This document shows, one piece after another, positions 31,610 to 61,291 of a stretch of DNA of 64,000 nt (positions are counted from its first letter, which is position 1; the number at the start of each line of letters is the position of its first letter). Made by a program: the position numbers and the translations under genes. This DNA comes from an uncultured delta proteobacterium (GTDB taxonomy: Bacteria > Desulfobacterota > Binatia > UBA9968). The notes under the pieces are model-generated. The model worked only from the letters and a program-made list of their open reading frames with translations. It did not search any database and was not told the DNA's origin. The stretch is taken from NCBI GenBank assembly GCA_963804165.1, contig CAWDPO010000042.1, positions 32,001 to 96,000 of the forward strand, written 5' to 3'.

Positions 31610-32237
31610 ATGTGCACTCTTTACCTGAGTGATTACTCTGTTCTTCGAAAACTCGTCGGAACTCGCGTGCGCCAGCTCGTGTGGGACCTGAAGATGTATA
31701 CTTTGTCCACGACAAGAGCATTGCGAAAGTTGAAGCGTGGGTGGAGCATCCGAACGTTCCCACCGCCGACGCAGGCAACGAGCTGATGTCCATAGTTTTG
31801 TCGCAGGAGCCGCCTGATGCTGGCAGTTTTCAAATGAAGGATGCGATGGATACGCGTATCGAGTTGTTGCAAGTGAAACTTGGTGGACAAAATTGAAGTC
31901 GCGAGAACTATGATTCTGTATCCAAGTGAGACGACGGTCGCACCGAGATCGCAAACTACGAAAGAGGGGATCGTATGCGACTGCGGCATTCTAGCCACTG
32001 TCGGCTCCCTGGTATTGCCAGCAGTTCAGCTCGGTAACAGCTTTGGGTTTGCAGGCTGGTGGCCGAATGTTCGCCTGTACTCAAGAGAGGAAGCTTTGTC
32101 TATTCTAGGTGAGCCGTATGAGCTGTTTGCACTCGAACGGGCTGCATACGATCGGCTTAGAGGAAGATCTTCGACCCGCCCGCTGGTCTCGTCCTCTCAG
32201 CCTAATACGTCATGCCGCACATACTTCCGAATCCTAA
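31610..32237 (+). pseudogene. Hypothetical accessory gene, frameshifted and interrupted near its 3' end by IS1634
   Basis: Consecutive ORF pieces at 31610, 31681 and 31880; at the reconstructed empty site the frame reads ...YFRILITHFNQND* ending at 34269. Confidence 0.45.
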
Positions 32238-37183: not shown

Positions 37184-38788
37184 TCAATAGCCCAACGCGT
37201 AGGCGACGCGGCGCGGGTCGGCGCCGCCGAGCCAGCAGCCGTTTTCTTGGTCGCTGACGATCACTTTCGCGCTGCCGAACGACCAACGCTCGACAACCGA
37301 CACATCGTGACCCTTTTTGCGCAAATCATCGAGCGTTGCTTGGTCCAAGCCTTCTTCCACACGCAGTGACTCCGGTAACTGATCGCGCGGCGGCGTGCCG
37401 GGCTGGTGGCTCCAGCGCGGTGCTTCGACAGCGCTTTGCGGATCCATTCCTAGATCGACGAGATCGTGAATGATTTGGAAGTTCGTCTGCGGCTGTTCGT
37501 CGGCGCCCGGGCTGCCGCCCACGGCGAAGACTTCGTTGCCGCGGAAGACCATGTAGGTATTCAGCGTGTGCGCCGGGCGTTTTCCCGGCTTGAGTGCGTT
37601 GGCCTTCTCGGATCGAGACCGAAACTGCACAGGCGATTATTCATGATCACGCCGGTATCGCCGGCGATCACGCGCGAACCGAACGGCGCGAAGATGCTTT
37701 GGATAAATGAAATCGCGTTGCCGTCGTGATCCGCCGCGCAAAGATACGTCGTGTCGCTGCTCTGATTCGCGACCGTTGTCGCCGGCCGATTCATGACGTC
37801 ACCGAATAGTTCACGCCGCTTTGCTGCATGCTCTTTGGAAATCAGCATGGCGATTTTCGGATCGCCGAATTTCGGATCTTCCAAGATAGCGGATGCGGTC
37901 CTCGAAAGCCAGTTTCTTCGCTGCGACTTGACAATGAATCATATCCGCCCGGCTCATGCTGCCGTCGTGGAAGGGCCACGCCTCGGCGATGTTGAGCATC
38001 TCGAGAACCATGAAGCCCTGGGATACCGGCGGTTGCTCGTAAACCAGGGTGTTACGGTACGTCGAGCTCACCGGATCCAGCCACTGACAAACTGATCGGC
38101 TGCAAATCTTCGGGCGCAAGAATGCCACCTTCGGCTTTGATCGTCGCGCAGATCTTATCGGCGATTTCTCCGGCATAAAATCCGTCGCGACCTTTTTGCG
38201 CGATTCTTTCGAGCACGTCGCCCAAACCCTTTTGCACGAGAATCTTTCCCGGCTTCGGCGTGCCGAAAGGCTGACGATAACATGCGATCGACCCAGGGAA
38301 ATTCGACGCTGAACTCGTCGATACTTTCGGCAAATTCCTGTGAGATCGGAAAACCCGTGCGCGCGATGCGAATCGCGTCGGCCATCAATCGCGCCAAATC
38401 TTTTGTGCCGTATTTTTTGTGCAGCTCCAGCCAGCCATCGACGGCGCCCGGCACGGCGATGCTCAGCGGCCCATATTGCGGAATGGTTTTCAATCCGCGC
38501 TCGTGAAAATATTCGATGCTCGCCTTCGCCGGCGCCGGGCCGCTGGAGTTGAGCGCTTCCACTTTGCCGGTCTTTTTCATGTAGACCAGCGCAAACAGAT
38601 CGCCGCCGGGACCGCTGGTTTCAGGTTTAACTACCGCCATAACGAACGCCGCGGCGAGCGCGGCGTCGACCGCATTGCCGCCTTCCCGGAGAATATCGAC
38701 GCCGCTAAGCGCCCCTAGTTGATGGCCGGAGGAAACCATGCCGTTCTGCCCCATGATCACCGGCCGTGCCGCTTTGGCGAAATTTCAT
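37184..38788 (-). CDS. ggt: Gamma-glutamyltransferase family protein (frameshifted)
   Basis: GGNAVDAALAAA, GPGGDLFAL, VPGAVDGW, DTTYLCAADHDGN, GSPGADEQPQ, GADPRR. Confidence 0.9.
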
Positions 38789-41240: not shown

Positions 41241-43345
41241 TCAAGCCTTGTGTTCGCCGTTATGCTCCGCCGCCTTGCTCGCCTTGGCTTCTTTGATGAC
41301 TTTTTCCGCCAAATGCGCCGGCAACTCTTCGTAGTGCGCAAACTCCATATGGAACTCGCCGCGCCCACTGGTGATGGAGCGCAGATCCGGCGCATATTTC
41401 AACACCTCGGCCATGGGCACTTGCGACTTGATCACCTGGGTGTGACCTTTGGTGTCCATACCCAGCACTTTGCCGCGCCGGCTGTTAAGATCGCCGATCA
41501 CGTCGCCCATGCATTCGTCGGGCACCGAAATTTCCATGTTCATGATCGGCTCGAGCAGTACCGGTTTGGCTTTTTCGACGGCATTTTTAAATCCCATCGA
41601 TGCGGCGATCTTAAACGCCATATCTGAGGAATCGACATCATGGTACGAGCCGTCATACAAGGTCACGCGCACATCGACCATCTGATAACCCGCCAGATAA
41701 CCGCCCACCATTGCTTCTCGGATGCCTTTTTCCACCGCCGGGATATAATTGCGCGGGATCGCGCCGCCGACGATCTGGTCGACGAATTCAAATCCTTTAC
41801 CCGGCGGTAGCGGTTCGACCTTGAGCCAGGTATCACCGAACTGGCCGCGCCCGCCGGTTTGTTTTTTTTGCCTTCCTTGGGCGCTGGCGCTGCCGCGAAT
41901 GGTTTCTTTGTACGGCACCTTGGGCGCTTTCAGCATGACCTCCGCGCCGTATTTACGTTTCAATTTCTCGACGATGATCTCAATATGCTGCTGGCCCATG
42001 CCGGAAAGAATAAAATCGCGGGTTTCCTCGTCGCGGTGCATCTCGATGGTCTGATCTTCCTCCCTCATGCGATGCAAGCCCTGCGGCAACTTATCTTCAT
42101 CGGCTTTGCTTTTCGGCTCCAAGGCGAACGAAATGTTCGGCGAGAAATGGGCCGCGCCTTCGTAGCGGATCGGCGCCTTTTCGTCGCACAGCGTATCGCC
42201 GGTAGCGATGTCCTTGAATTTCGCCGCCGCGACGATTTCGCCGGCCACCGCTTCCTTCACCGCCTCTTGCTTCTTGCCTTCCAGGCGAAACAAGTGGCCC
42301 ATTTTTTCCTGCACTTGGCGGTTCGGCACATAGCACGTCATGTCTGGACGCGATTTTTCCCGACATCACCCGCATGATCGAAAGCTTGCCGGCAAAAGGG
42401 TCGATGACCGTCTTAAATACATACGCCGAAAACGGCGCGTTGGGATCGGCCGCGCGTTTGATCGTTTCGCCGTTGGCGGGGTTGTCACCCTCGGCCTCGC
42501 CTTCGTCGAGCGGCGACGGCAGATAATCAGTGACGGCATCGAGTAGTTGCGCCATGCCGATCTGGCGCAGCGGCGCGCCAAAAAGGATCGGATAGATTCT
42601 TCGCTCCCGGGTGCCTTCGCGGATCGCTTTCTTTAACTCTTCGGTGCACAACTCTTTCCCGTCGAGAAACTTTTCGAAAAGCTCGTCATCGGTTCGGCAA
42701 CGTCTTCGACCATTTTCTGCCGCCACTCGTCTGCAGCGTCCTTCAGATCGGCAGGGATTTCGGTTTCGGGAATTTTCCCGAGTCGCCCTCGTAGATATAG
42801 GCCTTCATCGACAAAAGATCGACGACGCCTTTGAAATTCGCCTCCGCGCCGATCGGCATTTGCAGATAAATCCCTTTGGCTTCCAAAGTTTCCAGCATCG
42901 GCGCGATACGCGCTTCGACGTTGGCCTGTTCATGGTCCATCTTGCTGACGAAAACAAGCGGCTCACACGGTCTTCATTGGCTCTCGCCCACAAGTCGCTC
43001 GGACTCGACACGCAGTCCGACCGAGGGATTGAGCACGAACACCGCGCCACTACAGGCGCGCATGCTATTGATCGAATCGGCCAGAAACGCCGCGTAGCCC
43101 GGCGTGTCGATCAAGGTGATGGCATGTTTCTTCCAAGATAAGGAGTGAAACGCCGTCGAGATCGACACGCGATGCTTGATCTCTTCCGGCTCATGATCCA
43201 ACACCGAGGTGCCGTCTTGAACCTTTCCCAGTCGCTGTGTCGCCCCGGCCGCAAACAACATCGCTTCTCCCAAAGAGGTTTTACCTGAACCTCCCTGACC
43301 CAGAATGCCGACGTTACGAAGTTTATCTAGCTCCGTTGCAGCCAT
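41241..43345 (-). CDS. fusA: Elongation factor G paralogue (EF-G2 type), frameshifted
   Basis: GQGGSGKTS, DTPGY, KKQTGGRGQFG, DGSYHDVDSS, GDLNSRRG. Confidence 0.92.
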
Positions 43346-43373: not shown

Positions 43374-44166
43374 CTAAGTTTGCGCTCTTGCTCTTACCTC
43401 TTGGAGCGAATTTCTTTCGTGGATAATCCGCAACCCTTCAAGCGTTAAAAATTCATCCACCTCGTCGATGCTGGAACACTCCGATGCAACCAACGGCGCC
43501 AACCCGCCGGTGGCGACAACTTTGGCTTGCAGCCGTGTTGGTTCTTGAATGCGCTTCACGATGCCGTCGACCAGACCGACGTAGCCGTAAAAAATTCCGG
43601 CTTGGATCGAGTTGATCGTGTTGCGCCCGACCACCTCTTTGGGCTTGACGATCTCGATGCGCGGCAATTTCGACGCCCGCTGAACCAACGCTTCCAGGGA
43701 GATGGACAATCCCGGCGCGATGGCGCCGCCGATGTATTCGCCTTTTTTTGAGATCAGATCGATGGTCGTCGCCGTGCCGAAATCGACGATGATGCAAGTG
43801 TCGTGATATTTTTCGTACGCGGCAATGCCGTTGACGATGCGGTCGGCGCCGACATCCTTGGGGCTCTCGTAGAGAATCGGCATGCCGGTCTTGATCCCGG
43901 GCCCGACGATCAGCGGCTCGAGGTTGAAGAATTTCAGCCCAGCTCTTGGGTCGTCGTCAGCATCGGCGGCACGACGCAGGAGACCACAATGGCAGAAATT
44001 TGCGGCAGCGATAACCGGCATAGTCGATCAGCTGGGAAATGATGACGCCATACTCATCGGCGGTGCGCTCCGCCTGGGTCGCCAAGCGCCAGTGGGTAAT
44101 CAACTTCTTGCCCTGGTAGAGACCAAGAACGATGTTGGTGTTACCGATATCGATGGCCAGAAGCAT
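43374..44166 (-). CDS. coaX: Type III pantothenate kinase (frameshifted)
   Basis: [34 protein letters not shown]. Confidence 0.94.
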
Positions 44167-45021: not shown

Positions 45022-45867
45022 TCATGGTAATCTTCATGTTGAAATCGACCACCGGCGCCGAATGGGTGAGCGCGCCGGAGGAAATAAAATCAACACCCGT
45101 GTCGGCGACTTGGCGAATCGTCTCGAGCGTAATTCCACCCGAGGCTTCGACCCACGCCCGCTTATTGACGAGTTTCACGGCTTCGGCCATCTGCGCGAAG
45201 GTCATGTTGTCGAGCATGATGACGTCGGCGCCCGCATCGATCGCTTCTTGAACTTGCTTCAAGTTGCTCGCCTCCACTTCGACCTTGGCCATGAACGGCG
45301 CATGGCGGCGCACTGCTTTCACCGCCTCGGCAATCGAGCCCGGTCGCTTCGATATGATTGTCTTTCACCAGACGCGGCGTCATACAAACCGATCCGATGA
45401 TTCATGCCGCCGCCCATGCGCACGGCGTATTTCTCCAGCGTACGCAGTCCCGGCGTGGTTTTGCGCGTGTCGAGCACTTTGCAGGGAAAATCTTTGACCG
45501 CCTCAACGTACTTGCGCGTCAAGGTCGCGTTGCCGGACAAACGTTGGAGAAAATTGAGCGCCGTCCGTTCGGCGAGCAGCAACGCGCGCACGGGTCCGAT
45601 CGCTTCGGCCACCACCGTGCCTTGAGCTGACCTGCGCGCCGTCCTTGGTGCAGCAAGCGCACCTCGACCCTATGATCGATGAAATAGAAAATTCGGTCGA
45701 GCAAAACCAAACCTGCCACGACTCCATCTTTTTTGGCGCGAAATAACCCCGTGCCGCGCGATTCCGCCGAGATCGGTCGCCATCGTCGCCAGATCGCCGG
45801 CGCCGATATCCTCGTCCAATGAATCGCGAATCAATCTTTCGATCTGCGGGCTGACGTGAATATCCAT
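45008..45867 (-). CDS. nadC: Quinolinate phosphoribosyltransferase (frameshifted)
   Basis: [42 protein letters not shown]. Confidence 0.95.
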
Positions 45868-45871
45868 CGGC

Positions 45872-48633
45872 TCAATTCCTTCCCGCTTGGATTTCCTGAA
45901 TTTTCTCCAAGCTGTTTCTAAGCGTGCGAATCTTTTCCTCGAACTGGCTCGCCTTTTCCCGCTCCTTTGTGAATCACTTCTTGCTTGGCTTTGGCGAGGA
46001 AGTCGGCATTGGCGAGTTTCTTTTGCACTCGCGCCAGCTCGTCTTCGATCTTGCCCACTTCTTTCGCCAGCCTCGCCCGCTCCTCGTCGAGATTGACGAG
46101 ATCGTCCAATGGCAAATAGATTTCCATCGCTCCAACCACCGCGGTCGCCGCTCCCTTTGGGCGATCGCCAGCTCGACGAAACTCCGACGCGCCGACCCGC
46201 GCAAGCGAGCGTAAGTATGCTGCGTGCTCGCGTAGAAAGGCGAGATCGGCGTCGCTGGCCACAAAAAATCACGCTTACTTCTTTTCCCGGCGGGCAGTTC
46301 ATCTCGGTGCGGAGATTCCGGATGGCGCGAATCACGCCCATCAAAAACTTCATTTGCTTTTCCGTTTCTTCGTCAATCCAGCTGGCTTGCGCGTCGGGAT
46401 AAGGCTGGACCATGATGCTTTTACGGTTGTCGCCGAGCACCTGCCAAATCTCTTCCGTGACAAACGGCATTACCGGATGAAGCAGCAAAAGAATCTGATC
46501 CAACAGCTCCTGCAAGAGTTTTCGGCTTCTGGCCGCGACTCTTGCGTCCGTGCCGTTGAGCGCGAGCTTGCTCATCTCGATATACCAGTCACAGAACTCA
46601 TGCCAGGTGAACTGATAAAGCACGTTGGCGTAATCGTTAAAACGATAAGCCTCGATCGCGTTGCGCGATTCAGTGATGGCGAACGCCAGCCGTGAGCGAA
46701 TCCAGCGCTCGGCAAAGCCAAGATGGCGATCGTCGAGAACACTGCTGGTATGGTCGCCGGTGCCATTTGCACCGCCCAAATTCATCTGCACGAATCGCGC
46801 TGCGTTCCAAAGCTTGTTGACAAAATTTTGATAACCGGCGATGCGATCCTCGGCGAGCTTGATATCGCGCCCCATGGCCGCCATCGCGGCCAGAGTGAAG
46901 CGGAACGCATCGGTGCCGCATTGACTCATGATCTCAAGCGGATCGATGACGTTGCCCTTGGATTTGGACATTTTCTGGCCCTGTTCGTCGCGCACCAAAG
47001 CATGGATGTAGACGTCGCGAAATGGCACGTCGCCCATGAATTTGAGTCCCATCATAATCATCCGCGCGACCCAGAAAAAAAGAATATCGAAGCCGGTCAC
47101 AAGCGCTGAAGTCGGATAAAAAGTCTTCAAGTCCTCTGTCTGATCCGGCCACCCTAAAGTCGAGAACGGCCACAGGCCAGAAGAAAACCAGGTGTCGAGC
47201 ACGTCGGGGTCTTGGATCAGCTCCTTGCCGCCGCATAGAGGACACGTTGCCGGAGCCTCGCGCGCAACGATCGGTCTAGCGTCTTTGGCGAGCCGGTATT
47301 CGCCGTCCGCGCCTTTGATCAAGTTCGGCGCCTCGCAGCGCTTGACAATACCAGGCGGGAATTTGATGACCCCACCAAATTTGCCGCGAGATGCACCAAT
47401 CTTTGATGTTTTCCATCCAGGCGAAATAGGAATTGCTCCAGCCTTCGGGAACGATCTTGATCTTGCCGTCGCGCACCACGGCCATCGCCGGCTCGGCCAG
47501 CGGTTTGATATCGACGAACCACTGCGGCGTTAAGTACGGCTCGATGACCGTTTGGCAGCGGTAACAGCGGCCAACCATTAGCTTGTGCGCGTCGGCTTTT
47601 TCTAGAAATCCCCCATCTTTCAACTCCGCGACGATCAAGTTTGCGCGCTTCGAAGCGATCCTTGCCGCGGTAACGTTCGATCCAATCCGCCGCTTTCGCC
47701 GCGGTCCAAGAATGCAGCCGCGTCAATGCGTGCATCGGCGTCGAAGATGCTGATCTTATCCAAACCGAATCTTTCGCCGATGTCGAAGTCGTTGAAGTCA
47801 TGTCCCGGCGTGATCTTGAGCGCGCCGGTGCCGAACTCTCGGTCGACGAAAGGGTCGGCGATGAGCGGCACGATTCGTCCAGTGATCGGCAAACGAATTT
47901 TCTTGACCGACCCATCCTTGATAACGCTCGTCATCCGGATGCACCGCGACCGCGGTATCGCCGAGCATGGTTTCCGGGCGCGTCGTCGCGACCACGAGTG
48001 CCTGCGACGGATCGTCAGCCAACGGATAGCGAATATGCCAGAGATTGCCGTCGGCCTCTTCGTGCACTACTTCGATATCGGCGAGCGCCGTTTTGCAGCG
48101 CGGGCACCAGTTGATCAGTCGTTGCGCCCGATAGAGAAGCTTGTCTTCCCAGAGTTTGACAAATGCTTCGCGCACCGCGCGCGACAGCCCTTCGTCCATG
48201 GTGAAGCGCTCGTGGCTCCAGTCGCAGGAAACACCCAGCGCTTTTAACTGATGCAAAATCGCGTCGCCGGCTTCCTGTTTCCACTGCCAGACTTTTTCGA
48301 TGAATTTTTCCCGCCCGAGCTGCGGCGCGGGTCATCTCCTTTTGCGCCAGTTGGCGCTCGACAACATTTTGGGTCGCGATGCCGGCATGATCGGTGCCGG
48401 GAACCCAAAGCACACGAAACCCGTCCATCCGCTTGTAGCGGCAGAGAATGTCTTGCAGCGTGTTATTGAGTGCGTGCCCCATGTGCAGCGAACCGGTAAC
48501 GTTCGGCGGCGGAATCACAATCGAAAAATACCGCCGCCGTCCCTTTGGCCGGCGCGAAAAGCCCGGCATTGAGCCAATGGCTATACCATTTGGATTCAAT
48601 ATCCTTATGACTGTATGCCTTCGAGAGTTGCAT
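45872..48633 (-). CDS. valS: Valyl-tRNA synthetase (multiple frameshifts)
   Basis: [50 protein letters not shown]. Confidence 0.97.
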
Positions 48634-48679
48634 AGCTGTTTATCTCTTGCTGCGACGACTTCGAGCTCCGAACCGCTTC

Positions 48680-49168
48680 CTATTCGACGACGTCCACCAA
48701 CTCGATAAACTTCTTCTCGCCGTCGGCGGGTCGGGATGATTTCAATTCTGCGCGGCTTTCTCTTCGTTGAAGCCGGGGATCCTGCTCGGCTCTTGATCGG
48801 AGAATCAGCCATCCGTTCGACCCGTTGACTCGTCCCAAGCACTCCACTATCGCTTTTTTGAGCGCATCCTTATCGATCGGCCACTTTAAGTGGAGCAGCC
48901 TGTCGCCGCCCGGGACTTGCGTCTCCGCACCCGCGTCGATCCAGATAATCGGAAATTTCCAGTTTTGTACCGCGTCGAACGTTGCTGGGGCGTCAATGAG
49001 TTTCGCTCCCGCAGCGCCGCTCCATCGACAATCACTAGATCGGGGTCTGACAATGTCTCCGCCTCCGCAATGGTAGTTACAACGTCGACCTGATGATCGT
49101 TCGAACAACGCCACGGCAAATGCGTGTCGTAACATTTTGTAAGGTTCGATGACTAAGATCCTACTCAT
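48680..49168 (-). CDS. Hypothetical protein with a degenerate receiver-like fold (frameshifted)
   Basis: MSRILVIEP..., [25 protein letters not shown]. Confidence 0.55.
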
Positions 49169-58165: not shown

Positions 58166-58242
58166 GGCGGTGTAGCTCAGTTGGTCAGAGCACGCGGCTC
58201 ATATCCGCGGCGTCGACAGTTCGAATCCGTCCACCGCCACCA
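58166..58242 (+). tRNA. tRNA-Met (CAT), elongator type; probable integration site
   Basis: GGCGGTG/CACCGCC acceptor stem, CGCGG-CT-CAT-AT-CCGCG, CCA end; one T-stem mismatch. Confidence 0.93.
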
Positions 58243-58308
58243 ATTCTTCTCTCGGTAAGATCACGAATTCCATAGGTACTTTGCTGTGTTGCTAGCATCC
58301 TAGCCAAC

Positions 58309-59598
58309 TCAGCCATTTTTGCTTGAATGCTGTTTTGTACACTTTTTTGCCCCCAAGTTGGACGTTTTCAGACTTGCCCCCAAAGAAATTTTAGGCGACT
58401 CCCCAAGCCTGAGACCGCTATCTTTCATGCGCTCCTGCATCGCGCGCAGATACTTTGTTGTCGTCGTCAAGTTCGTGTGTCTCATCAAGCTCATCAGCAC
58501 GCGCGGGTCATCTGGTCTGAACCGTGCTAGCGAAGTAATCGCGCATGTCCTTCGGTCGCAGCTTCACGCTCGGCTGAATATTGCTCGATCCACAGGCAAA
58601 GCAACCAATGCCTTCGTCGACGTTGACCGACCTACATTTCGAGCAGCAATGGATGCGCGAGACGGCTTCGATTCGTTTGCAGTCCCGGCAGTGGCGACGC
58701 TTGCCGATGTTGCCGCCCGAACAGTCCGTGCAGCGAGAAGTAAGCCGCTCGATCTTCTCGAACAGGCGCCGGCGCGAATAGATTTTTTTCCCTTGGTCTG
58801 AGCCGATCGGCCGGCAAAGACATAATCAGACATGCTCCCAGCCTTGTGCTTTTTGAGACTTTCAATCAATGCCGGCGCCAACGGAAGGTATGCGTCGGAC
58901 TCGTCAGTCTTCGTGCCGCGGCAATGAAAATAACCTTCATCGAAGTTAATATCTTCCCATCGGAGCCGGTTCGCTTCGTCCTTCCGTAATCCGCTGAAAC
59001 GTAGAAAATCAAAGTAAGCTCTATCGGCCGGATTCTCGATGCTCTCTGCCGCTCTTTCCACTGCGGGTAGATTTAGCGGCGCCTTCTTCGGTTTCGTGCT
59101 GCCGATGATGCTTGTATCGAGTGCATCAACAGGATTTTTCACGAGCAGGTTTTTTTCAATCGCCCAATTGAGCAGCGCCCGAAGGTTTGTCACGTCATGC
59201 CACACCGTTTTCGGCTTAACGTTTCGCTCTCGCTGTATCACGAGCTTTTGGACCTGATCTGACGTAATGGATCCGATCGGCGTTGCCGCACCGAAGAACG
59301 GAATGATGATCTTGTCGAAGTTCCATCTCATGCCGTCGATTCGCCACCCGGAACGGCCTTTTTCTGCGGATTCCACGAGGTACGCGCTGACCACGGTTAT
59401 CAGTGCCGTTGGCGGTAACTCCGGCGTCTTGGGTCTGCTCGCCACCTCTGTCTTGAGCTCAATGAGTGCCGCCTTCGCCTCTTCCCGCGTTGCCCAGACG
59501 TAGCGCTTGTAAGTGCGCCCTTGTAGGCAAACCCTGTAACCCCAGCGGTCCCGCTCCGCCCGATACTCGATTCCGTTTCTCTTTTTTCTCTTTGCCAT
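58309..59598 (-). CDS. Tyrosine recombinase/integrase with an internal 4xCxxC insertion (two frameshifts)
   Basis: Arm-type N-terminus, SGLRKDE, RGTKT, YVFAG, RPKDMRDYFAS, MRHTNLTTTTKY. Confidence 0.88.
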
Positions 59599-59773
59599 CG
59601 TTCCCCCGCTGGTAGTGAACGCGTAGATTTATATATGTGTCTACGTCCTCTTGTCGATAACGCCTAACGCCCTTTCCGGCGCCTACTCTTACGAACGGTA
59701 TCCCGAGAGTTGCAACGGTTCGCTTTTTTACTTGCAGCTGCGCCGCGACTTGTCTGTCCGTGAGAAGGATCAA
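59459..59773 (-). CDS. Excisionase-like winged HTH protein
   Basis: LLTDRQVAAQLQVKKRTV...IPFVRVG...RRYRQEDVDTYI; directly upstream of int. Confidence 0.75.
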   Translation of the reverse strand: MILLTDRQVAAQLQVKKRTVATLGIPFVRVGAGKGVRRYRQEDVDTYINLRVHYQRGNDGKEKKEKRNRVSGGAGPLGLQGLPTRAHLQALRLGNAGRGEGGTH

Positions 59774-60016: not shown

Positions 60017-61291
60017 TGTAGTAGCAACGTGATTATGACAGGGGCTAACGGCAACGTAATTATGTCAGGGTGGGAGGATGACAACCCTGACGATGCAAGA
60101 CGAGAAGCGACTAGACGTAATACAACGAGTGAATCGAAGCGAGCTGACCGTGGTGCAAGCGGCACTGGTGATGGGACTAAGCGAACGGCAGTGTTACCGG
60201 ATCAAAGCATGTGTCGGTAAAGCCGGAGCCAAGGGAATCGTTCACGGTAACCGCGGACGGCCCTGTAAACGCAAGACCAAGGAGAAGACGGTTAGACGTG
60301 TCTTGGAATTAGCCCGAGGTAAATACCAAGGCTTCAACGACCATCATCTGACCGAGAAGCTCAAAGAACAAGAACAGATCGAGCTCAGCCGTGAGAAAGT
60401 CCGCCGTATCCTTCGTGCCCACGGGATCGGCTCCCCCAAGAAGCGTCGCGGGATTAAGCACCGAAGCCGCAGAGAAAGACGGGCCAGTGAGGGGATGATG
60501 CTCCTGCCACGAGCAAAGTCATGGGAGCCTTTTTTGCCCCGGCCGAGAGTTCCTGGGGTTACTTCCATCTGTTCTCCGAGATCTTCAAGCAGCATGGAGT
60601 ATCCCAGTCGATCTATACGGACTGTCACTCGGTATTCTGGACCGATCGGGAACCGACGTTAGAGGAGCAGTTGATCAACAGAAAACCCACCACCGAAGTC
60701 GGTCGAGGCTTGGAAGAGCTCGGGGTGACCTTGATCCTAGCCCATTCCCCTCAGGCCAAGGGGAGAATCGAGAGACTGTGGAACACTTTCCAGGACCGGC
60801 TGGTCAGTGAGCTGCGGTTGGCCAGGGCCAAGAGCGTGCAACAGGCAACCGTGGTCCTGGATCGTTATCTCCCCGTGCATAACCGTAAGTTTGCTAAGCC
60901 CGCTAAAGCACAGCCGGCCTGGAGAAAAGTCAGTGCTCTTAAGATCGAACGAGATTTGTGTTTCAAACAACAGCGCACAGTGGCTAAGGACAACACGGTA
61001 ACTTTCGAACGGACGGTTTTGCAGATCCCAAGACCTCGCCCTTTCGTTCTCACGCCAACAAAAGAGTCGAGGTCAACGTGATGTTGGACGGTGCGGTGGA
61101 GATTTTCTACAAGACTGAGAAAATCGCAACCTTCGATTCAAAAACAACGCACGCAATTGGCCTATATCGAACGATCGGAAAAAAGGAGGGGTTCCGCTAT
61201 GGTCCGCTTTCTAGGCTGGCCATTCAACCTGAGGTGTCACCCTGACATTTTTACCTTGCTGTTAACATGACATATTGACGTTGCTACGACA
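60017..61291 (+). mobile_element. IS1202-family (ISNCY) insertion sequence with 16-bp target duplication
   Basis: TGT...ACA ends with imperfect IRs and repeated subterminal motifs; GGCCATCAAATGTGGC at both 60001-60016 and 61292-61307. Confidence 0.9.
60078..61245 (+). pseudogene. IS1202-type DDE transposase with internal deletion and frameshift
   Basis: HGNRGR, YQGFNDHHLTEKL, SIYTDCHSVF, AHSPQAKGRIERLWNTFQDRL; the expected DGS...IDD segment is absent at ~60505. Confidence 0.85.

Follow-up and report, generated by a model that had tools for sequence, protein, structure and literature searches.

The 64,000-nucleotide window analysed here (positions 32,001 to 96,000 of contig CAWDPO010000042.1, assembly GCA_963804165.1, from an uncultured delta proteobacterium of the class Binatia) carries on its minus strand, at 59598-58185, a tyrosine integrase gene that adjoins a tRNA-Met(CAT) gene at the edge of a phage-like island of about 15.5 kb. 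Our subject is a cysteine-rich module inside the catalytic domain of this integrase, a span of four CxxC motifs that a first-pass annotation had placed at 58592..58732; these coordinates were reproduced exactly, the first Cys codon lying at 58732 and the last at 58592. The gene and its target are laid out as follows.

58185-59598, minus strand: tyrosine integrase gene, with a PF00589 match, in at least four to five frame segments in the assembly
58790-59598, minus strand: N-terminal part of the integrase, with a predicted N-terminal domain of beta-sheet and helix, core-binding helices, box I, Lys hairpin and patch III
58975-58992, minus strand: box I Arg, GLRKDE
58900-58917, minus strand: Lys hairpin, GTKT
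58810-58824, minus strand: patch III, YVFAG
58783-58789: T7 run (A7 on the coding strand), where the first frame break falls, with one base fewer than in homologues
58739-58792, minus strand: basic helix GKKIYSRRRLFEKIERLT, directly ahead of the insert, aligning with the helix before 'AGI/AGV' of XerD/XerA
58565-58744, minus strand: insert, 60 amino acids (aa) as modelled, with its eight-Cys core at 58592-58732
58721-58732, 58679-58690, 58634-58645 and 58592-58603, minus strand: the four CxxC motifs
58526-58558, minus strand: H-x-x-R box RPKDMRDYFAS, in which Lys replaces the first His, aligned to tPHqLRHsFA (XerA) and sPHvLRHaFA (XerD)
58514: extra base, the second frame break, a gap against L021 and absent from an independent metagenome contig
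58450-58512, minus strand: box II DDPRVLMSLMRHTNLTTTTKY, with the second His and the catalytic Tyr
58188-58367, minus strand: C-terminal tail ...QKSVQNSIQAKMAELARML...GGGGRIRTVDAADMSRVL, its last ~19 codons antisense of tRNA-Met
58166-58242, plus strand: tRNA-Met (CAT), the integration target, with the attL repeat at about 58196-58245

The protein is a tyrosine recombinase by model match, by fold and by five of the six catalytic residues. The N-terminal open reading frame (ORF) in the window scored 36.2 bits against PF00589 (cut-off 27.1), the phrog_1 integrase profile was matched at E 3e-37, and the window integrase is 83-86% identical to the homologues P0002-P0005, three of which are full-length at 430-471 aa. 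Upstream of the T7 run the frame reads MAKRKK...GLRKDE...GTKT...YVFAGRSAQTKGKK; downstream of it (58511-58825, minus strand) the frame continues as GKKIYSRRRLFEKIERLTSR, followed by CTDC, CRDC, CSKC and CFAC in that order and then by VKLRPKDMRDYFAS, and this frame, frame 0 of the minus strand, contains GKKIYSRRRLFEKIERLTSRCTDC ahead of CRDC. As assembled, the window copy is not an intact gene.

Intact copies of the gene occur elsewhere. A word-indexed search with a 344-aa ORF as query returned 40 proteins at E<=1e-5, 24 of which were fetched, and scans of genome and metagenome contigs enlarged the family set; intact homologues are 430-520 aa long and come from soil metagenomes and from Binatia metagenome-assembled genomes (MAGs). 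The four CxxC pairs stand in an uninterrupted ORF of 438-519 aa in 13 of the 24 fetched homologues; six have a different, helical insert of ~30 aa at this place (TAVERYLKEHPG...ALEACKAEKFRGG), and the remaining five have none (…LTGIKLRPKD…). Since the module is read through without a break in intact homologues, the Cys frame of the window integrase is genuine. Conservation within the module is strong. All eight insert segments compared, 32-66% identical to that of the window, share the eight Cys, one His and the 'CGS' that follows the last knuckle, and 26 of the 27 insert-bearing rows of a larger alignment retain the full set of eight Cys, the sole exception being P0044, a 183-aa fragment with R at one Cys. 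A divergent Cys subtype (L030, L033, L035 and P0050) has the spacing C-x2-C-x12-C-x2-C-x7-C-x2-C-x9-C-x2-C. Across 16 full-length proteins, 8-9 of the 8-13 Cys per protein fall within the ~60-aa stretch of the module. The cysteines are thus conserved, well beyond what chance would give, and lie in the frame that homologues use, and on the sequence evidence the four CxxC pairs are a genuine, conserved protein module of ~47-60 aa.

In this assembly the integrase gene shifts frame at least four to five times, and no uninterrupted reading frame is present in the window copy. The first-pass annotation had attributed the concealment of the module to a frameshift at the T7 run; the run lies at 58783-58789 and the frame does break there, but one restored base is insufficient for the whole gene. 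The box II segment is back in the first frame owing to the extra base at ~58514, a second extra base lies near 58420 by alignment to the intact relative L021, additional length changes fall between about 58356 and 58400, ahead of the tail, and the tail itself (...AELARML...GGGGRIRTVDAADMSRVL) sits in the third frame. The source genome is a MAG of 46 contigs that is 81% complete, and other genes in it are broken in a similar manner: EF-G is split within domain 2 (profile positions 1-38 lie in one ORF and 39-83 in the following one), a class I aminoacyl-tRNA synthetase is scattered over at least three ORFs, and the ATP-dependent DNA ligase and large terminase subunit of the island are also split between ORFs. 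Breakage of EF-G is incompatible with life, and the assembly therefore evidently carries many single-base insertions or deletions (indels). In X1, a run of a public soil metagenome, a 226-base contig covers 58463-58689 with one substitution and without base 58514. Given that essential genes are broken alike and that the X1 contig is without the extra base, the frame breaks in the window copy are most likely consensus errors of the assembly and not decay, and an apparent 'pseudogene' in this genome should be accepted only after polishing. On the ORF map of the window, EF-G and the class I aminoacyl-tRNA synthetase (41241-42726 and 45670-48842) each spread over at least two overlapping ORFs, and two further genes, for a gamma-glutamyltranspeptidase (38155-38760) and for a pantothenate kinase (43374-44021), are cut short.

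Three points weigh against assembly error. The support from X1 consists of one contig at depth 3.5, possibly from the source sample, and covers the 58514 break only; reads and contigs of four runs gave no cover at the T7 site (58711-58812) or at 58252-58455; and many metagenomic copies of the integrase family are frameshifted too, so that true decay of the window copy may be the explanation. By tblastn, the integrase is spread over two to four frames at L015, L019, L023, L026-L029, L032, L038, L044, L050, L056 and other loci. Such frameshifts in metagenomic and MAG copies may reflect decay of integrated elements or assembly error. We give very little credence to a programmed -1 frameshift at the A7 site (A AAA AAA), or to the Cys frame being an out-of-frame artefact. 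Though GGA AAA AAA on the coding strand is a canonical slippery heptamer, and a -1 slip on it yields exactly ...GKKIYSRRR, the homologous site is made up of mixed AAA/AAG/AGG codons with a homopolymer in none of the 44 loci matching the motif, so that a conserved programmed frameshift is excluded; moreover, the module stands in a single uninterrupted frame in homologues, the other breaks in the gene have no slippery site to explain them, and essential genes nearby are broken as well. The programmed-frameshift or artefact reading is largely refuted.

Within the catalytic domain the position of the module is precise. In a hidden Markov model alignment, family members that have no insert run gap-free to XerA (4a8e) and XerD (1a0p) through 'LTGIKLkPKDLRDyF', with '...ferikrltGiklkPKDLRDyFas' facing 'vkkygrkAGveLtPHqLRHsFA' (4a8e) and 'GIdseKLsPHvLRHaFA' (1a0p); the insert therefore replaces the turn between the YSRRRLFEKIERLT helix and the strand that leads to the K-x-x-R helix, and with a mixed profile the XerA and XerD alignments split around it. 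The module follows the basic helix ending in YSRRRLFEKIERLT and stands six residues ahead of the K-x-x-R active-site helix. The first-pass proposal of a ~47-aa module beyond patch III (YVFAG) is borne out: between patch III and the K/H-x-x-R box the module is real and conserved, and insert-free members, XerA and XerD have a 'GI' turn only. Catalytic residues aligned with those of XerA and XerD are R (GLRKDE), K (GTKT), R (PKDMRD), H (RHT) and Y (TKY), so the predicted signature R-K-H-R-H/W-Y is canonical at five of six positions, with Lys at the first His. This Lys, at 58550-58552 in the window, takes the place of the first His of the RKHRH pentad (P-K-D-[LM]-R-D) in every aligned member, and the tRNA-Val subgroup of the family has T-K-E-L-R-D at the same box.

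The module is also rare. A module profile searched against 1,835,955,588 cluster representatives gave 14 matches at E<=1e-3, 12 of them from this integrase family or its fragments and two from unrelated CxxC-repeat proteins (P0053 and P0055, E~1e-4), and a word-based search with the region found nine proteins, all nine integrases. Counting the window's own, three of 401 genomes of its class hold the module, and a second copy is absent from the window's genome. Named relatives are MAGs of Candidatus Binatia, Verrucomicrobiia, Acidiferrales and Chloroflexia, including a Binatia MAG (L012) of the same GTDB family as the window genome, and all metagenome runs that hold the integrase family are from soil. 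Judged from these searches, the eight-Cys module is confined to one integrase family. No Pfam or NCBIfam model covers it; TackOD1 reached 16.9 bits against a cut-off of 32, and PF00589 matched the intact homologue P0004 at 50.1 bits in two stretches flanking the insert. A search of the ESM Atlas for look-alikes of the insert gave no usable match. Known phage genomes, searched with P0004 by tblastn, gave 32 records, all below 30% identity and each covering less than 80% of the query, and the listed matches all end by P0004 residue 304, in the first part of the insert. In the literature, we found no report of a zinc or cysteine ribbon in the catalytic domain of a tyrosine recombinase, and reports of zinc ribbons in integrases concerned serine integrases and ALOG only; the main text of the recombinase classification PMC8138268, appendix figures and datasets aside, contains neither 'zinc' nor 'cysteine'. 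The module thus appears to be real, rare and undescribed, and the first-pass annotation, which did not recognise it from characterised integrases, is supported on this point.

An AlphaFold model of P0004 (mean predicted local distance difference test, pLDDT, 71.5) places the insert between helices at 276-287 and 350-360, and its N-terminus, with three strands and a helix, resembles an arm-binding domain. The top Foldseek matches of the whole protein (1z1b, 6en2, 5hxy and 5vfz, E 3.9e-10 to 1e-6) bring its fold together with full-length lambda Int, Tn1549 Int, XerA, Brujita Int and Xer. When the insert was modelled alone from 27 sequences in five models, the best reached pLDDT 88.4, with strands leading into the second and fourth CxxC, a pattern that probably fits two consecutive knuckle-hairpin-knuckle ribbons in tandem. 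The nested two-zinc hairpin suggested by the first-pass annotation loses ground, since the best isolated model fits tandem ribbons instead, though it is the single confident model of the five. In weak Foldseek matches, half of the module (29-32 residues) superposes at 1.1-1.5 Å on reverse gyrase and Trf, and the weak neighbours recognisable by entry title are zinc ribbon or finger proteins (MCM N-terminal domain, reverse gyrase, L40e, Trf, HypA and Nob1). The 27 inserts are basic on average (mean net charge +6.0, range 0 to +9), with a conserved KRR ahead of the second knuckle. We infer that the module consists of two small Cys4 metal ribbons, most likely of zinc, the pairing of the cysteines included.

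Among close relatives the eight-Cys module looks like an optional accessory part. On a maximum-likelihood tree of 40 distinct full-length members, built with the insert removed (seven of 47 sequences were dropped as duplicates, and four insert-state assignments were made by eye), the three insert states, Cys, helical and none, need at least 11 changes, and the starred branches alone require at least four changes for the Cys state. Well-supported sisters differ in insert state: the Cys protein P0011 pairs with the insert-free P0014 (100/97), the helical P0002 with the insert-free L011 (99/96), and the Cys protein P0041 with the helical L045 and L049 (100/100). In a DNA alignment of 11 loci, no short direct repeats or other signs of a mobile mini-cassette were seen at the insert borders. 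The helix that precedes the insert tracks its state, reading ...LFEKIERLT with the Cys module and mostly ...MFERIQ+xT with a helical insert or none (L036 and L045 are FEKI exceptions among helical-insert loci), which suggests co-adaptation or the exchange of tracts longer than the insert. Across 49 loci, ARAGORN placed tRNA-Met(CAT) downstream of the integrase in 28, tRNA-Val(CAC) in eight and no tRNA in 13. tRNA-Met(CAT) adjoins all eight scanned intact Cys-insert loci, and it is found as well at helical-insert loci (L021, L022, L036, L038, L054 and L055) and at no-insert loci (L011, L013, L016 and L060); the choice of tRNA gene is therefore not set by the module. The tRNA-derived tail of P0041, which has the Cys module, is shared with helical-insert loci at tRNA-Val(CAC). 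The first-pass suggestion that the module could alter target recognition is weakened accordingly, and the module is evidently unnecessary for catalysis.

We propose that the module is an accessory, basic unit of two Cys4 ribbons that contributes neither catalysis nor the choice of tRNA target, a reading towards which the evidence leans slightly. The eight Cys would fold as two Cys4 metal ribbons, zinc being the most likely metal and tandem the probable arrangement, and these basic ribbons would hang off the preceding helix, which we take to be the equivalent of helix J, the DNA-recognition helix of Cre. From there they would add non-essential contacts to the DNA flanking the core site or, less likely, to a protein partner, and would thereby tune affinity or the stability of the complex. 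Helix J of Cre is named 'the DNA recognition helix' in PMC5766204. Several observations weigh against this proposal. Metal binding, DNA contact and activity of the module are predicted, and its position relative to DNA is deduced; the insert reaches a pLDDT of only ~50-68 in the full-length P0004 model, and the remaining four of the five isolated models reach 51-57. Fold searches with the isolated insert returned nothing significant (best Foldseek E 0.37; VIA Z<=3.3), so no fold family can be assigned. Pfam DZR (PF12773) reaches 14.2 bits against a cut-off of 27.3 (E 0.05) over residues 61-81 only; among four members of the family, three of them Cys-insert and one helical-insert, none matched DZR at E<=1. 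The equivalence with helix J is presumed, and since the module is often lost or replaced, it could just as well have little function.

The same surface could instead serve protein-protein contact, with a neighbouring protomer in the synaptic tetramer, the small DNA-binding or excisionase-like protein of the element or a host factor, which we regard as unlikely. Zinc ribbons in general frequently mediate protein contacts, close relatives have alternative cassettes at the site (Cys, helical or none), as expected of a partner-matching surface, and the helix ahead of the insert varies along with the insert state (FEKI in Cys forms, mostly FERI in helical or insert-free ones); a strongly basic module, however, fits nucleic acid better, the small helix-turn-helix (HTH)-like ORF upstream of the integrase accompanies both a Cys form (P0021) and a helical form (L045), and no partner was identified. 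Somewhat less probable still is a near-neutral, metal-folded decoration of a tolerant surface loop with little effect on recombination: its rarity, and its repeated gain, loss or replacement among ~75-80% identical sisters that share a tRNA target, would fit such a loop, yet the eight Cys, the His and 'CGS' are kept across two subtypes only 32-38% identical, which argues for purifying selection on a folded functional unit. Eight conserved thiols stand six residues from the active-site helix, and the CxxCG knuckle is also compatible with rubredoxin-type iron sites, so a redox or metal sensor whose Cys4 oxidation or metal loss switches the integrase can be imagined; neither the sequence nor its context gives any hint of sensing, relatives that share the target manage without the module, and we consider such a switch quite improbable. 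Returning to the proposed accessory DNA-contacting ribbons, a wider and more speculative version, which we doubt as a whole, would treat the loop after the recognition helix as a cassette site at which close relatives swap a double Cys4 ribbon, a helical hairpin or nothing, the Cys version being a new, self-contained unit for gripping DNA or for regulation. If so, the Cys4+Cys4 unit would change how tightly, or under which metal or redox conditions, the island integrates and excises, and would represent a natural modular re-tuning of a tyrosine recombinase within its catalytic domain.

The island itself is integrated into the 3' part of the tRNA-Met gene of an uncultured soil bacterium. The integrase lies beside an intact tRNA gene, and a displaced 3' fragment of that gene is found at the far end, 15.5 kb off, as a 50-base repeat that is 94% identical, with three differences in the T arm (contig G000:C42:105699-105748). 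In homologues (loci L011-L087) the integrase ORF overlaps the final ~58 bases of the tRNA gene in antisense, and in the window the last ~19 integrase codons (GGGG-x-x-RT-x-DAADMSRVL, 58185-58242, minus strand) are the antisense of the anticodon-to-3' part of the tRNA and of the att repeat, with the ATG that faces the CAT anticodon translated as Met in the integrase tail; the tail of the tRNA-Val subgroup ends in ...RTYDLAHVRRAL. Mx8 and SSV are known cases in which the integrase reaches across attP (PMC4383910). The island (covered by L100, G000:C42:90100-106200; window coordinate = L100 position + 58099) lies mostly past the window end, and its other recognised genes are as follows.

Window 59459-59773, minus strand: small HTH-like ORF upstream of the integrase, with no Pfam match and a weak match to phrog_4745 'DNA binding protein'
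Island: XRE-type regulator
Window 60078-61081: insertion sequence (IS)-type transposase with an HTH_28/HTH_29/HTH_32 N-terminus, in overlapping ORFs of 194 aa and 186 aa
L100 5411-6811: DUF3631 protein
L100 6868-7476: CHC2 primase zinc finger
L100 8553-9535: ATP-dependent DNA ligase, two ORFs
L100 12632-14862: large terminase subunit, two ORFs

The small HTH-like ORF stays open 140 bases past the integrase start, and the same frame is fused to the integrase in P0021; the overlap is either genuine or another indel. The split transposase is likewise either an insertion sequence with a frameshift or an assembly indel. No capsid or tail genes were recognised among the scanned island ORFs, and the island is possibly either a phage satellite or what remains of a prophage.

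Tyrosine recombinases serve as tools for engineering, and known insertions in their catalytic domain (the I2 helix of IntI, the beta insertion of Tn916/Tn1549) matter for substrate handling. The family described here offers a natural, compact insertion, predicted to be a metal ribbon, at the end of the recognition helix, together with natural controls in the form of helical or insert-free sisters at the same tRNA target. These controls would allow a clean swap to measure the effect of the added module on DNA affinity, directionality or regulation, and even a functionless module would document a tolerant insertion site in the catalytic domain.

Compared with known systems, the module shares with Pfam DZR and generic zinc ribbons the four CxxC knuckles and the spacers of 7-12 residues, but it falls below the DZR threshold and has no significant structural match. 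Closer in setting is the ALOG/DIRS1-type recombinase, in which, according to PMC3537659, a zinc ribbon inserted in a XerC/D-like recombinase domain is proposed to act in DNA binding; it is a single, eukaryotic ribbon in the N-terminal core-binding domain, whereas the window integrase has two predicted ribbons in the C-terminal catalytic domain of a bacterial protein. Lambda-Int-type, tRNA-targeting integrases (lambda Int, Tn1549 Int and Brujita Int, with the Xer core) have the same PF00589 domain and overall fold and the same box I Arg, hairpin Lys, x-x-Arg, His and Tyr, and they likewise enter the 3' part of a tRNA gene, with a ~50-bp repeat displaced to the opposite end; they and Xer have a short turn where the window family has its 47-60 aa eight-Cys module, and the window family differs further in the Lys at the first pentad His and in a tail of ~85 aa after the Tyr. 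The catalytic-domain insertions named in the main text of PMC8138268 are that of the integron integrases and the beta insertion of IntTn916 and IntBPP-1, along with two extra strands in lambda Int and short insertions in archaeal groups. The window protein scored 22.7 bits against TIGR02249, with a cut-off of 265, and is not an IntI; only the N-terminal part of IntI4 (2a3v) aligned to the window family. The I2 helix or 'additional domain' of IntI is likewise a lineage-specific insertion in the catalytic fold and serves substrate recognition, but it is helical, Cys-free, essential and family-defining, whereas the module of the window family is a predicted Cys4+Cys4 unit that comes and goes among close relatives.

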